NCBI GenBank assembly: GCA_964409035.1
Contig: CAYPBQ010000003.1
Location: 41,530-105,529 of the forward strand
Length of the DNA: 64,000 bases
Direction: 5' to 3'
DNA from: an uncultured Candidatus Saccharibacteria bacterium
GTDB lineage: Bacteria > Patescibacteriota > Minisyncoccia > Phycocordibacterales > UBA12088
The position numbers and the translations under genes were made by a program. Shown here one piece after another: positions 4,757 through 64,000 of the stretch; within the stretch, counting starts at the first letter, position 1, and the number at the start of each line of letters is the position of its first letter. A model generated the notes under the pieces. That model was given only the letters and a program-made list of their open reading frames with translations, had not been told where the DNA came from and did not search any database.

Positions 4757-6061
4757 ATGATACAAAAACGACCAGCAAAAAAGGTGGCAAAGAAGGTAAA
4801 GAAGTTACCTAAAAAACCATCAGCAAAAAAAGCAGCACCACAGAAAAAGGTGATAAAAAAAGCTGCAAAGAAGCCTACCTCGGTAAAGCCTATCGCAAAG
4901 CCAGCCGTAAGAACAAAAGGACTCCAGAAGCGTGAGCTTCAGCAGATTGTAGTGCCAAAGAAAAAGGGCGCACCATCAAAAAGTGAGGCAGAAATGGAGG
5001 CTAAGGCTCAAAAGTTGGTAGAGAAGGGAAATGAGCGTGGGTACGTTACTTTCGATCAGATTTTGCAAGTATTTCCACGCATAGAGGAGGATGTGGTATT
5101 TCTTGAAACGTTATATGAAAAATTCAGCACTTCTGGTATTGATGTGCTTGAGGGTGGAAATATTCTTGATGACTCAGTCTCCGATGATCTTCTTGATAAG
5201 AAAAATACATACAAGGGTGGAAGTGATTCATCGTATGACTCGATACAAATGTATTTGAGAGAGATCGGACAATACCCCCTTCTTAACGTCTCAGAAGAGC
5301 GTGAGCTTGCAAAACGAGTAATGGACGGTGATATTGATGCTAAGAACCTTCTCGCAAGAGCAAACCTTCGACTCGTGGTATCTATCGCAAAAAAATATAT
5401 TGGACGATCTGCTGATCTTACTCTTCTTGATTTAATTCAGGAAGGTAACCTTGGTCTCTTTAAGGCGGTAGATAAATTTGACTATACAAAAGGGTACAAG
5501 TTTTCTACGTATGCCACATGGTGGATTAGGCAGGCTATTACGCGCGCCCTTGCAGATCAGTCACGTACTATTCGTATACCTGTTCACATGGTAGAAACGA
5601 TTGCTAAGTATAAGCAGGTCTTTAGACGTCTTTCTCAGGACCTTGGACGTGACCCCATGCCAGAGGAGATTGCTGATGAGATGGGTCTTGAAGTAGAGAA
5701 AATACACACTATTGAAAAAATAGACCAGACTACCGTATCACTTGAGTCACCAGTGGGAGATGAGTCAGACGATAGATCAGTGCTCGGTGATTTTATTGCT
5801 GATGACAAGATACAATCTCCTGATCAAGAGACTGCGCATAATATACTTGCTGAGCAGATTCGAACTATTCTTGACGATCTTTCTCCAAAAGAGAGAAAAA
5901 TTCTTGAAATGCGTCATGGACTTGAGGACGGTATTTATCATACTCTTGAAGAGGTGGGTAAGGAGTTTGGTGTTACCCGTGAACGTATTAGACAGATTGA
6001 GGCAAAGGCAATTGAAAAGATTCGTGCTCATGATGGATCAAAGCAGTTAAGGAGCTACTAA
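4757..6061 (+). CDS. rpoD: RNA polymerase sigma factor (sigma-70, primary) with Lys/Ala-rich N-terminal tail
   Basis: Regions 1.2-4: '[14 protein letters not shown]', '[40 protein letters not shown]', '[23 protein letters not shown]'; classic dnaG-rpoD linkage. Confidence 0.95.
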
Positions 6062-6967: not shown

Positions 6968-9073
6968 CTACCCTCTATTTGCATTGGCATCTTCTTGCTC
7001 AAGATCGTTTTTGATTGTTATCACTAGTTTTGGGGTGATAAGCTCCTTGCTAGATAGTTCCTCAAGAATATGCTCTTCTACTTTTGCAATACCTTTTTTC
7101 GCAAGGGTAGTGTTGAGTGCGTGAATAATGTTTGGGTGTTCTTTCTCAAGATTCTTCATTTTATCTTTCGCGCCATCCTTAAAGGTCTCGTATATCTTCT
7201 TTACCTCATTGAGTGATGTGAGTGATAGAAGCATTTCCGACTCTTTGTCATCTGTAAGTGTATCTAGCTCTTTCAAAACCTTGCGGGAGATAATAGTCTG
7301 CGCGCGGTAATACATATACTGCTCTTCAATTGCTAGCTCGCGTGATCGCCACGGCACAAAGAATCTAAGAAATACATCGGATATTATTTCAAAGATATCC
7401 ATCTTATCCTTGTACTTAGAAAGGTCATCAAGTGGTAGGTTCTTTTCAATGGCTTCAAATTGCAACGTTAATTTTCCTGCGATGCGCTTGTATACTGGTT
7501 CAGTTATTTCATCATAGGCAAAGAGGTCTTTCAGATACTTTCGTTCAATTCCAATGGCATGTAGGCGGAGTGTCCTGTCCATGATTGCGTGGTCGTTTTT
7601 GTCAGTATTTGAACAATCAGTAGAGTACTTAGCAAAGTCTTTTTTGTGCGCTGTATTGAGTGTGGTGTACGTAGTTGCGTCAATGTAGCCCTTCGCGTGA
7701 AAGGTATCAAGGCGGGCAAGTACTGTTCGGTGTATGAGTGCTCGCGCCTGTGCGTACTCTAGTTTTTCAAGTGTGGTGAGCGCATCAAGTCCAAGTTTTT
7801 TAATAAAGTAGTTGATGGTGGTCGCCTTGATAAAGAGAGTGGCAAATATGCAACCAACAGTTAGCGCAAGAAGAAATTCTTGTACTGAGTAGGGAAGCGC
7901 CCATCCCGGAACGGTAAAGTCAGAGGGGATAAGCAGCACCATGGTGATAGCAAGTGCCCCACGTAGTGATCCCCACGAGAGAAGGTGTTGCCACGAGCGA
8001 GGTACTTTTTTCTCTTCCTTGGCAAATGCATTATACGCCTCAGCAACAGGGTAAATAGAGAGTGCGCGGGCAAATGCTACTACCAAAATAGTGATACCGA
8101 TTGGAACAATAAGTGACGGCACACTAGAAGGAAGCTCAACAAAAATAAGACCTATGAGGATAAATACAAGCGAGTTTGCGATGAAAGCAAAAATACCCCA
8201 AAACTTTTCAACAAACTCTTCTGCGTGAGGTGATATTTTAGACCTGCCGTAGTTACCCATAACAAGTGACGCCACCGTTGTAGCGATTATTGATGAAATG
8301 ATGAGATGAAAATCACCAAAATGCGCATAGTGAGAAATAGCTTCAGATGAGATAAAGGTGGTGTGTGCTAGTACTACAGTAAGGACAATAGACACCATCT
8401 CATTTGATTTTGTCATGCTGATGAGGCGTGTAAACACACCTCCCATGAGTAAACCAAATACAATACCCCCAACTATCATTGTTGAGAAAGTGAGTATTCC
8501 ATCACTAATTGAGGACACTCCCTTGTACCCAAACATTGCTATTTCAAGCACTATCAAAAAGAGCGCAACTGATGTTGCGTCATTAAATAGTGATTCGCCT
8601 TCAAAAATAAGTGATAGCCTTCGTGGAGCGCCGTACTCTTTAAAAAGGGCAAGCACCGCGACAGGGTCGGTTGCGCTGATGAGGGCGCCAAAAAGTAGCA
8701 ATATTATAAATGGTACCTCAAGCCCAATAGCTGGAAATATTAATGAGAGTAGAAATGCAATTGCTCCAGCACTAACAACAAGGCTAAGCACCGCAAAAAG
8801 CCAAATGATGGTGTTGTTTTCCATCACTCGTCTAATATTTATATTATACGCGGATTCAAAAATGAGCGTCGGTAGGAAGATGTAAAAAAGTAATTCTGGC
8901 GTGAGCTTAAACTCGGTAAAAAAACCAAAACCAGGGACAAGAGATAGTGCGCCAAGTACCACACCAATAACCACCAAAAAAACTGTATAGGGTACCTGTA
9001 AGCGCTTGGCAATAAGGTAAGAGACACTTGAAAGCGCTAAGAGAAAGAATAATACAAAATAGTATGTCAGCAT
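6968..9073 (-). CDS. Na+/H+ (cation/proton) antiporter, CPA1/NhaP-like, with long C-terminal cytoplasmic domain
   Basis: ~12 predicted TM helices; CPA motifs 'FFYIFLPTLIFESAYN', 'ALISATDPVAVLALFKE'; 701 aa with soluble C-terminal ~280 aa. Confidence 0.8.
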   Translation of the reverse strand: MLTYYFVLFFLLALSSVSYLIAKRLQVPYTVFLVVIGVVLGALSLVPGFGFFTEFKLTPELLFYIFLPTLIFESAYNINIRRVMENNTIIWLFAVLSLVVSAGAIAFLLSLIFPAIGLEVPFIILLLFGALISATDPVAVLALFKEYGAPRRLSLIFEGESLFNDATSVALFLIVLEIAMFGYKGVSSISDGILTFSTMIVGGIVFGLLMGGVFTRLISMTKSNEMVSIVLTVVLAHTTFISSEAISHYAHFGDFHLIISSIIATTVASLVMGNYGRSKISPHAEEFVEKFWGIFAFIANSLVFILIGLIFVELPSSVPSLIVPIGITILVVAFARALSIYPVAEAYNAFAKEEKKVPRSWQHLLSWGSLRGALAITMVLLIPSDFTVPGWALPYSVQEFLLALTVGCIFATLFIKATTINYFIKKLGLDALTTLEKLEYAQARALIHRTVLARLDTFHAKGYIDATTYTTLNTAHKKDFAKYSTDCSNTDKNDHAIMDRTLRLHAIGIERKYLKDLFAYDEITEPVYKRIAGKLTLQFEAIEKNLPLDDLSKYKDKMDIFEIISDVFLRFFVPWRSRELAIEEQYMYYRAQTIISRKVLKELDTLTDDKESEMLLSLTSLNEVKKIYETFKDGAKDKMKNLEKEHPNIIHALNTTLAKKGIAKVEEHILEELSSKELITPKLVITIKNDLEQEDANANRG

Positions 9074-59413: not shown

Positions 59414-60712
59414 ATGCCAGCTAAAGACATTTTTAGAAAAATTATATTGCTCATTATTACCACAGAGGCAAAGCTCATTCTAAAGAAGTATAAGCCAAAG
59501 ATAGTGGCGGTTGCAGGAAGTGTAGGCAAGACCTCTACCAAGGATGCGGTGTACACCGCGCTTTCAAGCACCTTTCATACACGAAAAAGCGAAAAGAGTT
59601 TTAACAGCGATTTTGGCGTACCCCTTACCATACTTGGAGTAGGGAATGGATGGTACGACCCAGTAGTGTGGATCAAAAATATTTTGATTGGTCTCAATCT
59701 TCTTATTTTCAGAGAAAAGTATCCCGAGTGGCTAGTGCTTGAGATTGGTGCTGATAGGCCAGGTGATATTGCCTCGCTTATGTCATGGATACAACCACAT
59801 ATTAGCGTCCTCACCCGATTTCCTGAGGTGCCAGTGCATGTAGAATTTTTTTCTTCACCAGAGGAACTTCATCAAGAGGATTTTCTCATTGCTGATACGC
59901 TACCTGCTGATGGGGTGCTTGTTATTAACGAGGACGACGAACTACAACGTGCTCATGAGATAAAGTCACCAGCAACAGTTATCAGGTATGGATTTTCATC
60001 ACATGCAGAGGTGCGTGGCTCTGGGGTACAGCTACGCTACACCGACAAACAGGTGCGTGGCGTGGCATTTAGAATCCGTGAGAGTGATCATAAGGCTGAG
60101 GTCATTGAAGTTGAAGGTTCGCTTGGCATTCAGCATGCATACCCAATACTTGCCGCCTTTGCGGTAGGGAAGGCGCTCGCGATACCCTTTGATACATTGC
60201 AACAAGCATTTACATCATATGATCCACCGCGAGGAAGGATGCGCATAATCAAGGGAATTAAGCATTCTATTATCATTGATGACACATACAACTCTTCTCC
60301 AATAGCAGTCGAGCATGCACTTGCTACACTTAGTGATGTAGTCGCGCAGGGGAGAAAAATCGCAATCCTAGGTGATATGCTCGAGCTTGGCGAATACTCC
60401 GTAGAGGCGCACAAAGAAGCGGGTAGACAAGTGGCTAAAGTAGTAGATGAGCTGTATACCGTGGGTATACGTGCGCGCATGATTGCTACAAGCGCTCATG
60501 AAAGCGGACTTGCTATTGAACATATTCACTCTTTTGATGATGCAATTGCATGCGCAAATGCGCTTGAGACATCAATTGCCCATGGCGATGTAGTTTTAAT
60601 AAAAGGATCACAATCAATACGACTTGAAAAAGCCGTAGAAGAACTAATGCAAGAACCAGAGAAAAAAGCAGAGCTACTTGTACGCCAAGATTCTGCTTGG
60701 CTTGACAAATAA
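59414..60712 (+). CDS. murF: Mur ligase, most likely UDP-MurNAc-tripeptide--D-Ala-D-Ala ligase (MurF); MurE not excluded
   Basis: 'IVAVAGSVGKTSTK' P-loop, Mur ligase middle/C domains; 432 aa. Confidence 0.65.
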   Translation: MPAKDIFRKIILLIITTEAKLILKKYKPKIVAVAGSVGKTSTKDAVYTALSSTFHTRKSEKSFNSDFGVPLTILGVGNGWYDPVVWIKNILIGLNLLIFREKYPEWLVLEIGADRPGDIASLMSWIQPHISVLTRFPEVPVHVEFFSSPEELHQEDFLIADTLPADGVLVINEDDELQRAHEIKSPATVIRYGFSSHAEVRGSGVQLRYTDKQVRGVAFRIRESDHKAEVIEVEGSLGIQHAYPILAAFAVGKALAIPFDTLQQAFTSYDPPRGRMRIIKGIKHSIIIDDTYNSSPIAVEHALATLSDVVAQGRKIAILGDMLELGEYSVEAHKEAGRQVAKVVDELYTVGIRARMIATSAHESGLAIEHIHSFDDAIACANALETSIAHGDVVLIKGSQSIRLEKAVEELMQEPEKKAELLVRQDSAWLDK

Positions 60713-60754: not shown

Positions 60755-61024
60755 ATGTCTAACGACACCAAGAATAAAGTTATAGAGATATTAAAAAGCG
60801 TTCAAAGGATTAAGAGAGGCAGAAAGCCGTACCAAAAATTGGGAATAATAAGGAAGGGAGAAGTGGTGCAGATTGTAATCGGCCATAGCGCCTTCCGCGG
60901 CATTGCTATGTGGGATAGTAATAGGGGATTTGTCACAGTTAGATATGTGGGTTTTTCAGGTGAAGCAGAAACAAGACCAATCCGTTTACGTCATGTACGT
61001 AGAGTGGAAGAAGAAACGAAATAA
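60755..61024 (+). CDS. Hypothetical basic protein (89 aa)
   Basis: ORF followed by terminator 61040-61072. Confidence 0.35.
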   Translation: MSNDTKNKVIEILKSVQRIKRGRKPYQKLGIIRKGEVVQIVIGHSAFRGIAMWDSNRGFVTVRYVGFSGEAETRPIRLRHVRRVEEETK

Positions 61025-61116: not shown

Positions 61117-61191
61117 GGCCCTATCGTCTAACGGTTAGGACGGAGCCTTCTCAAGGCTTAAATCGGGGTTCGATTCCCCGTAGGGTCACCA
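61117..61191 (+). tRNA. tRNA-Glu (anticodon CUC) with encoded CCA
   Basis: 'GGCCCTATCGTCTAACGGTTAGGACGGAGCCTTCTCAAGGCTTAAATCGGGGTTCGATTCCCCGTAGGGTCACCA'; anticodon loop UUCUCAA; T-loop TTCGATT. Confidence 0.85.
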
Positions 61192-61348: not shown

Positions 61349-61941
61349 CAAACTGTGGCGTCGCTTCGGAACGGCGACGGACAATTGCGGAGTATGTTTT
61401 CCATACAGGCATACTTGTTCTACATTCGCTCACATTGAATTTTGAAACCACGTACTTGCATTTACGATAATATGGCTATAAATAAGGACTTAGGTAATAA
61501 ATATCTGCAAATGATAAGGAACAAAACCTAATTAAGAACAAGATACGTTCGTGGAGTTTCACCTCCGACCGTTTGCTGGCCTGTTCCATTTCCGTACTTT
61601 TGGCTCCAAGACGTCGGATATATGCTTAAATATAAGGGTATTGTTTAAAGTATTACGACCAAACTGTGGCGTCGCTTCGGAACGGCGACGGACAATTGCG
61701 GAGTATGTTTTCCATACAGGCATACTTGTTCTACATTCGCTCACATTGAATTTTGAAACCACGTACTTGCATTTACGATAATATGGCTATAAATAAGGAC
61801 TTAGGTAATAAATATCTGCAAATGATAAGGAACAAAACCTAATTAAGAACAAGATACGTTCGTGGAGTTTCACCTCCGACCGTTTGCTGGCCTGTTCCAT
61901 TTCCGTACTTTTGGCTCCAAGACGTCGGATATATGCTTAAA
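61349..61941. repeat. Perfect tandem duplication: two ~283-bp copies (61349-61631 and 61659-61941) separated by 27 bp
   Basis: Both copies begin 'CAAACTGTGGCGTCGCTTCGGAACGGCGACGG...' and end '...GACGTCGGATATATGCTTAAAT'; every block compared by eye is identical. Confidence 0.85.
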
Positions 61942-62061
61942 TTCTAGTTTTCTTCTCTAAAAGAAGCACTTTACTGCTGATGTTGTTATTTGCTGAGGAT
62001 GTACTTGCGCCTTAAAAGCATTTCTGTATAATAAAGATGTAACCCATTAACCATTTTATAT

Positions 62062-62457
62062 ATGAACACGACACCTAACCCTCTAGACGCACTTCTTACT
62101 GATGATGCAGCAACAAACCGCGAACAGTTGGCAGCATTGGTTGGACCATTCGTAAAAATCGTAAAGGATTCAAAGGAGTTTGAATTTCTCCCCGCTTTCT
62201 CCAAGCTCGATAACAGCTCAAAGGTAGAAATCATGTTGGCCGCTAGTAAGGCTCGCGCACTTCTCTTTGATGAAACCGACGGCCTTGCCCCTTCCGAAAT
62301 CATCGCGACGCAGGTGATGACTGAGGGTTCAACAAAATCGGCGATCAAAAGTCTTTTTGATGGACGCAAGATCAAGAAGAACAAGGAAGGTAAAAAATAC
62401 ATTTTGCCACCCTACCGTATTCCCGAGCTTGTTGAAAAATTTATCAAAAGTAACTAA
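62062..62457 (+). CDS. Hypothetical protein (131 aa), gene 1 of 4-gene operon
   Basis: ORF; 9-nt gap to next gene. Confidence 0.4.
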   Translation: MNTTPNPLDALLTDDAATNREQLAALVGPFVKIVKDSKEFEFLPAFSKLDNSSKVEIMLAASKARALLFDETDGLAPSEIIATQVMTEGSTKSAIKSLFDGRKIKKNKEGKKYILPPYRIPELVEKFIKSN

Positions 62458-62466
62458 TACACACTT

Positions 62467-62844
62467 ATGGAAACAAATGAACAACGTATATCTGCATTGG
62501 AATCCCGCGTAAAAACACTTGAAGCACTGATCCTTAATGCCGATGCTCCCACAGTAAACGTAAATAGGAAGGAAAAGACCCTTCGAGAAATCATAAAAGG
62601 AAAGAAATTTAATGGGCAGGAGCAGGTTGCTGCTATCGTTGGCTATCACGAAAAGATTCTCGGTCAGGCTGTTCACAAAAATGAGATCAAAAATGCATGG
62701 CAGGAAGCAAAAATGAATGGAAAGTACGCAGCCATCTATCTGACCCGAGCGCAAAAAGACGCGCTTGTACGTATTCTTGCTGATGACACATGTGACCTTA
62801 CTCAAACTGGAGAAGATTTTTTTGACGGATTACTAACTAATTAA
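62467..62844 (+). CDS. Hypothetical protein (125 aa) with N-terminal coiled coil
   Basis: 'ETNEQRISALESRVKTLEALIL' heptad-like. Confidence 0.4.
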   Translation: METNEQRISALESRVKTLEALILNADAPTVNVNRKEKTLREIIKGKKFNGQEQVAAIVGYHEKILGQAVHKNEIKNAWQEAKMNGKYAAIYLTRAQKDALVRILADDTCDLTQTGEDFFDGLLTN

Positions 62845-62851
62845 AATTGAT

Positions 62852-63442
62852 ATGGAATCAGAAGAAATAAAAAAGAATATCTCCTTGGCGCTCGAGGCTG
62901 TCGAAGAGATGCAGGACAAAGAACTGAAGGCTGTTGCTTTCAGTGTTGTGCTTGAACAGATGCTTATAACATCACTTCCAGATCAGAATAAGGTCCATAC
63001 TCCAAGTAAAGCGCCCCTAAGAAATGACGTTGTTCCGAGCTTGTCACCGACCATTAGGATGTCTCCGGCTTTGAGTTCCTTGCCTATTACACAGGAGCAA
63101 CTATCAGAAATTTATGAAGTGAATGGTGATGAGCTCAGATTGCGAGTAAAGGTAAATGATGTGAAGAATTCAGAGCAGCAACGGAAGCTTGCGCAAGCTA
63201 TGCTTTTTGGCTACAAAGTGCTCCTTGATGAAAAGGACGTAAAGGGCTCAAAATTGCTTATTACTGCAAAAGAATGGGATATCCCTACTGATCATTTCGT
63301 GAAGAACATCAAGGGTAATAAGAAAAATCCAAACAAGTACGTAGATATCCGAAATACTGGTAAGGGAAAAGATCCAATCTTTTCCCTTAGACCAGGAGCT
63401 CTCAATAAACTGGTAGACGAAGTGAAGGCGCTCGCTTCCTAG
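62852..63442 (+). CDS. Hypothetical protein (196 aa)
   Basis: ORF; 8-nt gaps on both sides. Confidence 0.4.
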   Translation: MESEEIKKNISLALEAVEEMQDKELKAVAFSVVLEQMLITSLPDQNKVHTPSKAPLRNDVVPSLSPTIRMSPALSSLPITQEQLSEIYEVNGDELRLRVKVNDVKNSEQQRKLAQAMLFGYKVLLDEKDVKGSKLLITAKEWDIPTDHFVKNIKGNKKNPNKYVDIRNTGKGKDPIFSLRPGALNKLVDEVKALAS

Positions 63443-63450
63443 CTTTTACT

Positions 63451-64000
63451 ATGAATCCTCTAGTACAACACCTAAAGAATCTGCCGAATGATCTAGTTAC
63501 CGCACTACAGACGGAATTTCAAAAACTGCATCAGCAATATTTTCTCGGGAAGTGGGAGCCGGCCCAACTAAACGGAGGACGCTTTGGTGAAGCAGTTTTG
63601 CGCATCGTGGAGTATAAAGACACCAATAAGTTCACACCTGTAGGCACTCAATTGAACCGTAAGCAAATAGTAAATAGCGTTGCACAAAATACGGCACTTC
63701 CAAAATCATTGCGACTTCAGATACCAACACTCGCAGAACTGGTTATGGATTTTCGTAATGATAGGAATGTGGGACATCTTGGGACAATTGACGTTAACGA
63801 GATGGATTCTGCCTTTGTACTCAATGCAACTAATTGGATCGTGGCTGAGCTAATTCGACTAGAGACACAGATGAGTCCATCTGATGCTCAAGCAGAGATC
63901 AAGAAGATCATCGAGCGAAAAGTACCAATTGTCGAGGAAATAGGGGGTCGCTTGAAATGTCTAAATCCGAAATTAGACGCAAAGACCAAAGCTGTGGTTT
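63451..64000 (+). CDS. Hypothetical protein with R-x6-H (HEPN-like) motif; 3' end beyond window
   Basis: Open frame from ATG 63451 to window end (not in ORF track because no stop); 'FRNDRNVGHLG'. Confidence 0.4.
   Translation, partial: MNPLVQHLKNLPNDLVTALQTEFQKLHQQYFLGKWEPAQLNGGRFGEAVLRIVEYKDTNKFTPVGTQLNRKQIVNSVAQNTALPKSLRLQIPTLAELVMDFRNDRNVGHLGTIDVNEMDSAFVLNATNWIVAELIRLETQMSPSDAQAEIKKIIERKVPIVEEIGGRLKCLNPKLDAKTKAVV

Follow-up and report, generated by a model that had tools for sequence, protein, structure and literature searches.

HEPN RNases are the effectors of Cas13, Csm6, PrrC, several abortive infection (Abi) systems and many toxin-antitoxin (TA) pairs, and new HEPN families have repeatedly proved to be defence systems or useful RNA tools. 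We examined a four-gene cassette, g1 to g4, at the end of a 64,000-nucleotide stretch of contig CAYPBQ010000003.1 from an uncultured Candidatus Saccharibacteria bacterium (hereafter the window), whose last gene is predicted to encode an HEPN RNase joined to a winged helix-turn-helix (wHTH) domain. Anantharaman et al. 2013 (PMC3710099) recognise HEPN proteins by three features: the fold is a four-helix up-down bundle, the arginine of an Rx4-6H motif is followed by a polar residue (N, D or H), and an acidic residue lies upstream, usually within an Ex3[KR] motif. HEPN genes are found in restriction-modification (R-M) operons in the case of PrrC/RloC and several other families, including 'solo' AbiJ genes and EC042_2821/DUF3644, the latter being fused to wHTH, restriction endonuclease (REase) and zinc-ribbon domains (PMC3710099). 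Further points of comparison are the HEPN-MNT toxins, which form small cassettes, and AbiV, an HEPN RNase of a two-component lactococcal Abi system that typically lacks the histidine of the Rx4-6H motif and uses an alternative one (PMC3710099).

We regard the window cassette as probably a mobile toxin- or abortive-infection-type HEPN module with winged-helix partners. An initial annotation of the sequence had put forward these four genes as a candidate uncharacterised anti-phage or abortive-infection module, and the motifs, predicted fold and genomic context support that proposal, with a putative anti-phage role and a putative RNase activity. The genes and the motifs of the last one are located as follows.

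62062-62457, + strand: g1, type A partner, 131 amino acids (aa) (open reading frame [ORF] list and sequence)
62467-62844, + strand: g2, type D partner, 125 aa (ORF list and sequence)
62852-63442, + strand: g3, type E partner, 196 aa (ORF list and sequence)
63451-64000 (window end), + strand: g4, predicted HEPN-wHTH effector, first 183 of 252 codons in the window
63589-63603, + strand: E47-x3-R51 in g4 (codons gaa...cgc; within 'GEAVLR'), the upstream acidic Ex3[KR] HEPN motif
63751-63777, + strand: 'FRNDRNVGH', residues 101-109 of g4
63754-63777, + strand: R102-N-D-R-N-V-G-H109 in g4, the Rx6H HEPN motif with N after R

The related contigs and loci compared with the window copy are named L001, L009, L010 and so on. 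The four ORFs are co-oriented with intergenic gaps of 9, 7 and 8 nt (g1-g2, g2-g3 and g3-g4), and the packing, coordinates and sizes first reported for them (131, 125, 196 and >183 aa) were correct. The remainder of g4 was read from an identical Logan contig that continues past the window end (L001:1539-2297), giving a full length of 252 aa, and the operon ends with g4, since the gene that follows it on L001 lies on the opposite strand. Comparison with the 77%-identical cassette of L010 gave ratios of nonsynonymous to synonymous substitution (dN/dS) of 0.07 for g2, 0.10 for g3 and 0.03 for g4; for g1, dN was 0.097 and dS was saturated. A family of homologues was found for each gene. These are thus real genes under purifying selection and not chance ORFs. 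That none of the products belongs to a recognised family also held: scans of the four window proteins against Pfam, PADLOC, PHROGs and NCBIfam returned only noise, and none had a match at E<=1 to any PADLOC-DB v2 anti-phage system model.

Assignment of g4 to the HEPN superfamily draws on predicted structure and on conserved motifs. The full-length AlphaFold model (predicted local distance difference test [pLDDT] 84.6) comprises a helical N-terminal domain (residues 1-155, the part to which the HEPN fold is assigned), a beta hairpin at approximately 161-170 and a C-terminal winged helix at 177-243. Its PDB matches were exclusively wHTH regulators of the MarR/IclR/PadR type; regulators of this kind swamped the Foldseek searches of PDB and BFVD, and the top match, a Fic protein (E 0.03), was rejected on a root-mean-square deviation of 16 Å. 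Because these regulators dominated the full-length results, a domain-only model was needed, and an AlphaFold2 model of window residues 1-158, built with 126 aligned relatives, reached a pLDDT of 94.2 and a predicted template modelling (TM) score of 0.90. The best Foldseek matches to this domain in the PDB are HEPN proteins of several families: TT1696 (1ufb), SSO P95883 (2q00), AF_0298 (2hsb), the sacsin HEPN domain (3o10), 4nqf, ST0689 (1wol), TM0613 (1o3u), AbiV (9bj5-7) and Csm6 (6tug, 5fsh). TM-scores against the HEPN structures were 0.51-0.57 normalized by query length and 0.61-0.67 by target length. The search by predicted structure therefore pointed to the HEPN relationship that had been suspected from sequence, albeit with weak E-values. 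Resemblances to PCI/COP9-like and to kleisin/kite (MksE) proteins were weak and scattered, and were dropped.

The predicted domain contains the four-helix up-down bundle of the superfamily together with both of its motifs. The string 'FRNDRNVGH', noted at the outset as fitting the Rx4-6H signature, is a conserved Rx6H motif: among 126 relatives at 24-97% identity to g4, R102 and H109 are each retained in 125 and the polar residue N103 in 113, so that conservation of the R-x6-H residues extends down to 24% identity. Upstream, E47 is invariant (126/126) and R51 is present in 111, both lying inside the helix at residues 35-58. Conservation extends to R105 (124), D119 (126), W129 (126), E133 (124) and R136 (124 of 126). 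R102-N103-x5-H109 is the predicted RNase active site. The commonest Pfam match among the relatives, Abi_C, which we take to be an AbiJ-type HEPN domain, is weak (9/126, best E 0.02), none reaching the Pfam threshold, and a PADLOC scan of the same 126 proteins gave only weak matches, mostly to wHTH/CARF-type models. From motifs and modelled fold, we place the N-terminal domain of g4 in the HEPN superfamily and in no described family of it.

The g4 family is large, compact (250 aa) and mainly found in Patescibacteria, and has been invisible to Pfam, NCBIfam, PADLOC and PHROGs. A word-index search with g4 recovered 160 relatives of about 250 aa at 60-97% identity, all unannotated and all from Patescibacteria wherever the source names an organism. 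A profile search of 1.84 billion cluster representatives (clusters at 50% identity) yielded 1,010 clusters at E<=1e-3, of which 641 reached E<=1e-10; among the matches listed, members are ~250-260 aa long and align across the whole profile, fragments excepted. The members sampled are mostly from Patescibacteria, with one from Salinibacter ruber (WP_162890548.1), and the closest relatives are annotated as Candidatus Paceibacterota, which assigns the window to a patescibacterial genome. A scan of 185,579 species genomes detected 14 related loci, a number that understates the true count as the scan used peptide patterns of the close family.

In a comparison of 22 distinct loci, five classes of gene, always ordered A-B-C-D-E, were distinguished upstream of the HEPN gene. 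The window lineage has A(g1)-D(g2)-E(g3)-HEPN, and other loci have A-B-D, C-D, A-B-C-D, B-D, D alone or A-E. At least one small wHTH-type gene adjoins the HEPN gene in all 21 loci with readable flanks. Type D is the most constant partner, being present in 14/16 close-family loci, and in 12 of these it immediately precedes the HEPN gene, with gene ends overlapping by ~20-30 nt; type E occupies this position in L025 and L029 as well as in the window. The partners share a design: the N-terminus is a short coiled coil, beta motif or zinc ribbon, and a low-complexity linker leads from it to a wHTH-like domain of ~70 aa. In g1 the C-terminal half is wHTH-like; the 91 members of the g1 family, which include an identical protein in L009, all come from Patescibacteria and carry no annotation. 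The g2 protein begins with a coiled coil and continues through a linker to a C-terminal domain that shares homology with the wHTH of g4; the coiled coil, already proposed in the initial annotation, is plausible given a heptad pattern and a weak leucine-zipper match. A helical N-terminus, low-complexity linker and wHTH-like C-terminus make up g3, whose family comprises 19 unannotated matches. Profile comparison with hhalign related the type D wHTH convincingly to the g4 family (probability 78%, E 1.8e-5) and the type A domain of g1 weakly to the g4 wHTH (E 0.0023, probability 13%); the A-D and D-E comparisons between partners were not significant. Searched against PDB sequences, the profiles of types A, D and E, and that of the g4 family itself, gave only weak wHTH or coiled-coil matches.

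Several loci depart from separate upstream genes. Salinibacter has a single 264-aa partner abutting the HEPN gene, in which an acidic linker connects a double zinc ribbon to a wHTH-like end, and in L028 a 407-aa partner combines a zinc ribbon with two fused wHTH-like partner domains. In a 344-aa member in L027 (4087-5121), the HEPN-wHTH protein continues at its C-terminus into a fused B-type domain, and a second, free B-type gene lies downstream (5184-5735); in L026 the partner is likewise downstream of the HEPN gene. Because partners are found fused to the effector, partners and effector probably act together physically.

The most informative finding on genomic context is the insertion of the cassette between hsdM and hsdS. 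In two loci (L012:940-7934 and L016:54-7922), a type I R-M operon reads hsdR, hsdM, small wHTH gene, D, HEPN, hsdS, with all genes co-oriented and the HEPN stop codon overlapping the start of hsdS. This siting matches that of PrrC/RloC and other HEPN families, and by analogy suggests that the hsd-embedded copies could be a latent suicide RNase backing up restriction. The window copy and most other copies have no R-M linkage. Other defence-related or mobile genes accompany individual copies: AbiGi, PIN/Phd and integrase fragments near one; an MTase-Mrr fusion (MTase, methyltransferase), DUF3800 and TA pairs near another; and a C5-MTase with HNH, ParE, SNase and TraG near a third, with HicA, integrase and transposase genes also among the neighbours. 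The HEPN gene of L008 is directly followed (6975-9059) by a 129-aa gene overlapping its stop codon, a C5 DNA methylase and an HNH protein, an arrangement which may be another R-M linkage of the cassette.

Set against the described systems, g4 shares features with each and matches none. With AbiJ-type HEPN proteins (Abi_C, PF14355) it has in common the HEPN bundle, the R-N...H motif and the upstream acidic residue; Abi_C is also the only recurrent, if weak, Pfam match to the catalytic domain, and cassette copies lie within R-M operons as 'solo' AbiJ genes do. However, the window g4 has no PF14355 match and those of its relatives are all below threshold, AbiJ combines an N-terminal AbiJ-NTD with a C-terminal HEPN domain whereas g4 has an N-terminal HEPN domain and a C-terminal wHTH, and the cassette always has separate small wHTH partner genes. 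In L012 and L016, the likeness to the PrrC/RloC anticodon nucleases lies in the siting of a predicted HEPN RNase gene within a type I hsd operon, where it has the same orientation as hsdS and overlaps it, making the R-M-embedded copies a natural parallel to the PrrC paradigm. Unlike PrrC/RloC, the g4 protein (~250 aa) has no ABC-ATPase/P-loop domain and no known tRNA target, its partners are wHTH proteins rather than Hsd subunits, and R-M linkage is restricted to a minority of copies.

AbiV is comparable as a small HEPN effector working with a partner and as a structural match to the N-terminal domain (Foldseek E 0.5-1.4, TM ~0.45; 9bj5-9bj7), but it lacks a wHTH and shares no similarity in sequence with g4, which keeps the histidine in its Rx6H motif. 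The best structural matches are HEPN-MNT toxins (TT1696 1ufb, AF_0298 2hsb and TM0613 1o3u; TM 0.51-0.54 by query length and 0.61-0.67 by target length), which likewise occur in small cassettes with an HEPN toxin; in contrast to these, the partners are wHTH proteins with no nucleotidyltransferase (MNT) match, the motif is Rx6H and not Rx4H, and g4 has extra helices as well as the C-terminal wHTH. In EC042_2821/DUF3644, the combination of HEPN, wHTH and zinc ribbon recurs along with R-M association, the cassette zinc ribbons sitting in the Salinibacter and L028 partners. DUF3644 is nevertheless absent from the Pfam matches listed for g4 members, no REase domain is present, and the cassette domains are on separate polypeptides. 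As judged from sequence and structural models, g4 represents a new HEPN family, outside AbiJ, PrrC/RloC, HEPN-MNT and AbiV, and its winged-helix partners make up an unusual, modular set.

Comparison between genomes indicates that the cassette moves as a unit. The region to its left contains two further features.

61117-61191, + strand: tRNA-Glu(ctc), left border of the variable region (ARAGORN; Rfam tRNA 61.5 bits)
61349-61942, no strand: perfect tandem duplication, 311 bp x1.9 (TRF)

By blastn, the window lineage and L010 are homologous over the cassette only, beginning no earlier than 61998, so the 311-bp repeat is not part of the mobile cassette. With the nearest relative, the Paceibacterota contig L009 (96% identity), homology starts at 61181, 11 nt inside the 3' end of tRNA-Glu; left of this junction L009 has different cargo, including a 635-aa OLD-family ATPase-nuclease (L009:1455-3362; PADLOC Old 8.5e-34; AAA_15/AAA_21). 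The same tRNA-Glu junction thus carries different defence cargo in sister genomes. On the right, the HEPN gene of L009 is directly followed by an intact large serine recombinase with Resolvase, Recombinase and Zn-ribbon domains, and then by an N6/N4 methylase. The window lineage has at this point, just past the window end, a remnant ORF of 174 aa (L001:2321-2845, - strand), the last ~130 residues of which are 87% identical to the C-terminus of the L009 recombinase; this truncated recombinase delimits the islet on its right. Serine recombinases also adjoin the cassette in L015 and L022, making four loci with L009 and the window-lineage remnant. As a possible attachment (att) site, a direct repeat of the tRNA 3' end was sought in L001 and L009, and none was present beyond the shared 'GGTCACCA' junction.

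The 311-bp repeat lies in the non-coding spacer between tRNA-Glu and g1 and contains GC-rich hairpins, and an Rfam search found only the tRNA and no match to the repeat. The repeat unit occurs once in the near-identical contig L009, and L001 and L002, both short-read contigs, are interrupted within the repeat; the duplication could be recent or an assembly artefact. The position beside a tRNA and a repeat had been read as the usual place for a defence island; neither the tRNA nor the repeat is a conserved feature of the cassette.

A mode of action can be proposed for the cassette. The four genes would form one mobile conflict cassette with g4 as effector, a predicted metal-independent RNase using E47/R51 and R102/N103/H109. 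Three of the five interchangeable classes of small partner proteins are represented by g1, g2 and g3. In each, a flexible linker connects an oligomerisation-type N-terminus (coiled coil, beta motif or zinc ribbon) to a winged-helix-like domain, which in g2 is paralogous to that of g4. Binding of the partners to g4 would hold the RNase latent or control it, much as an antitoxin or a sensor does, and phage infection or loss of the element or partner would release it, leading through its toxicity to growth arrest or aborted infection. PrrC/RloC and other HEPN genes embedded in R-M operons would offer a parallel.

A number of observations weigh against this explanation. The Foldseek E-values to HEPN structures are weak (0.2-2), so that the fold assignment relies on the enrichment of HEPN proteins and on TM-scores; g4 has no significant sequence match to any characterised HEPN family; the motif loop has a pLDDT <50 in the full-length model; and the predicted placing of R102 and H109 at the HEPN catalytic position derives from the motif rather than from a structural superposition. 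RNase activity and defence are themselves predictions. Two to four wHTH partners per locus are unusual for a TA pair. The GC content of the cassette equals that of the host with no deviation, tblastn of g4 against phage and plasmid collections gave no match, the two R-M-embedded copies may stem from a single insertion event, and the copies in L003, L028 and L029 lie among housekeeping genes with no defence neighbour.

Three alternatives bear on the same evidence. An addiction (TA) module, in which wHTH antitoxins neutralise an HEPN toxin and thereby stabilise a serine-recombinase element or genomic islet with no phage role, is in our judgement unlikely. Such a module would account for the serine recombinases in L009, L015 and L022 and the remnant in the window lineage, for TA genes as neighbours, and for compact, overlapping genes with DNA-binding-type proteins upstream of a putative toxin. 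In a generic type II TA system, the gene of a DNA-binding-type antitoxin precedes the toxin gene and often overlaps it. In all close loci a D or E partner upstream abuts or overlaps the HEPN gene (at 7-9 nt spacing in the window), but there are two to four partners, and the partner is downstream in L026 and L027. Three to four 'antitoxins' would be atypical. Many copies have no recombinase nearby, and a site between hsdM and hsdS is typical of HEPN genes coupled to defence and not of genes that maintain an element. As many TA modules also defend, this alternative overlaps strongly with the mobile toxin/Abi-type module that we prefer.

It is less probable still that the cassette encodes a non-catalytic nucleic-acid-binding or regulatory complex, in which the wHTH proteins serve a mobile element as transcription or partition-like regulators, with the HEPN-like domain acting as a ligand- or protein-binding helical bundle. 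Every product has a wHTH-like domain, and some HEPN domains are non-catalytic; however, the non-catalytic families are those that lost the Rx4-6H motif (PMC3710099), and this explanation is disfavoured on that account since R, N, H and the upstream E are retained in 113-126 of 126 relatives. A purely regulatory operon would also be unexpected inside type I R-M operons. Strong purifying selection, high sequence conservation across lineages of the candidate phyla radiation (CPR) and the proximity of some copies to RNase Y/RecA or metabolic genes could instead suggest a housekeeping RNA-processing operon of Patescibacteria. We consider this very improbable because the distribution is patchy and non-syntenic: the genome scan yielded just the 14 loci (understated as noted), the chromosomal site differs in nearly every genome, gene content is variable, homology is limited to the cassette and mobile or defence genes flank many loci. 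Housekeeping homologues with fixed synteny, which would have spoken against the initial proposal, did not emerge; the site varies, the cassette is embedded in R-M operons twice, and recombinase, OLD, AbiGi, TA and methylase genes are its neighbours.

A more specific form of the preferred mobile HEPN module can be put forward tentatively. The cassette may be a multi-subunit defence system in which the HEPN RNase is held by paralogous winged-helix 'decoy/sensor' subunits that sense different phage cues and which plugs into type I R-M as a second line; with anything from one fused partner to four separate ones, it would be a widespread and distinct system. If so, it would join the small number of immune systems whose main hosts are the defence-poor Patescibacteria (CPR). 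Partners that occur as separate proteins, joined to one another or joined to the effector make up an unusual regulatory arrangement, from which one could learn how small RNase toxins are sensed and held in check.

Two minor features of the window lie outside the cassette. An ORF of 516 aa at 36197-37747 (+ strand) is similar in tblastn to the large serine recombinase of L009 (29% identity, E 2e-28), and its end overlaps a tRNA-Asn gene (37735-37807, - strand); together they look like a second integrated element. An 89-aa ORF at 60755-61024 lies between a murF-like gene (59414-60712) and tRNA-Glu.

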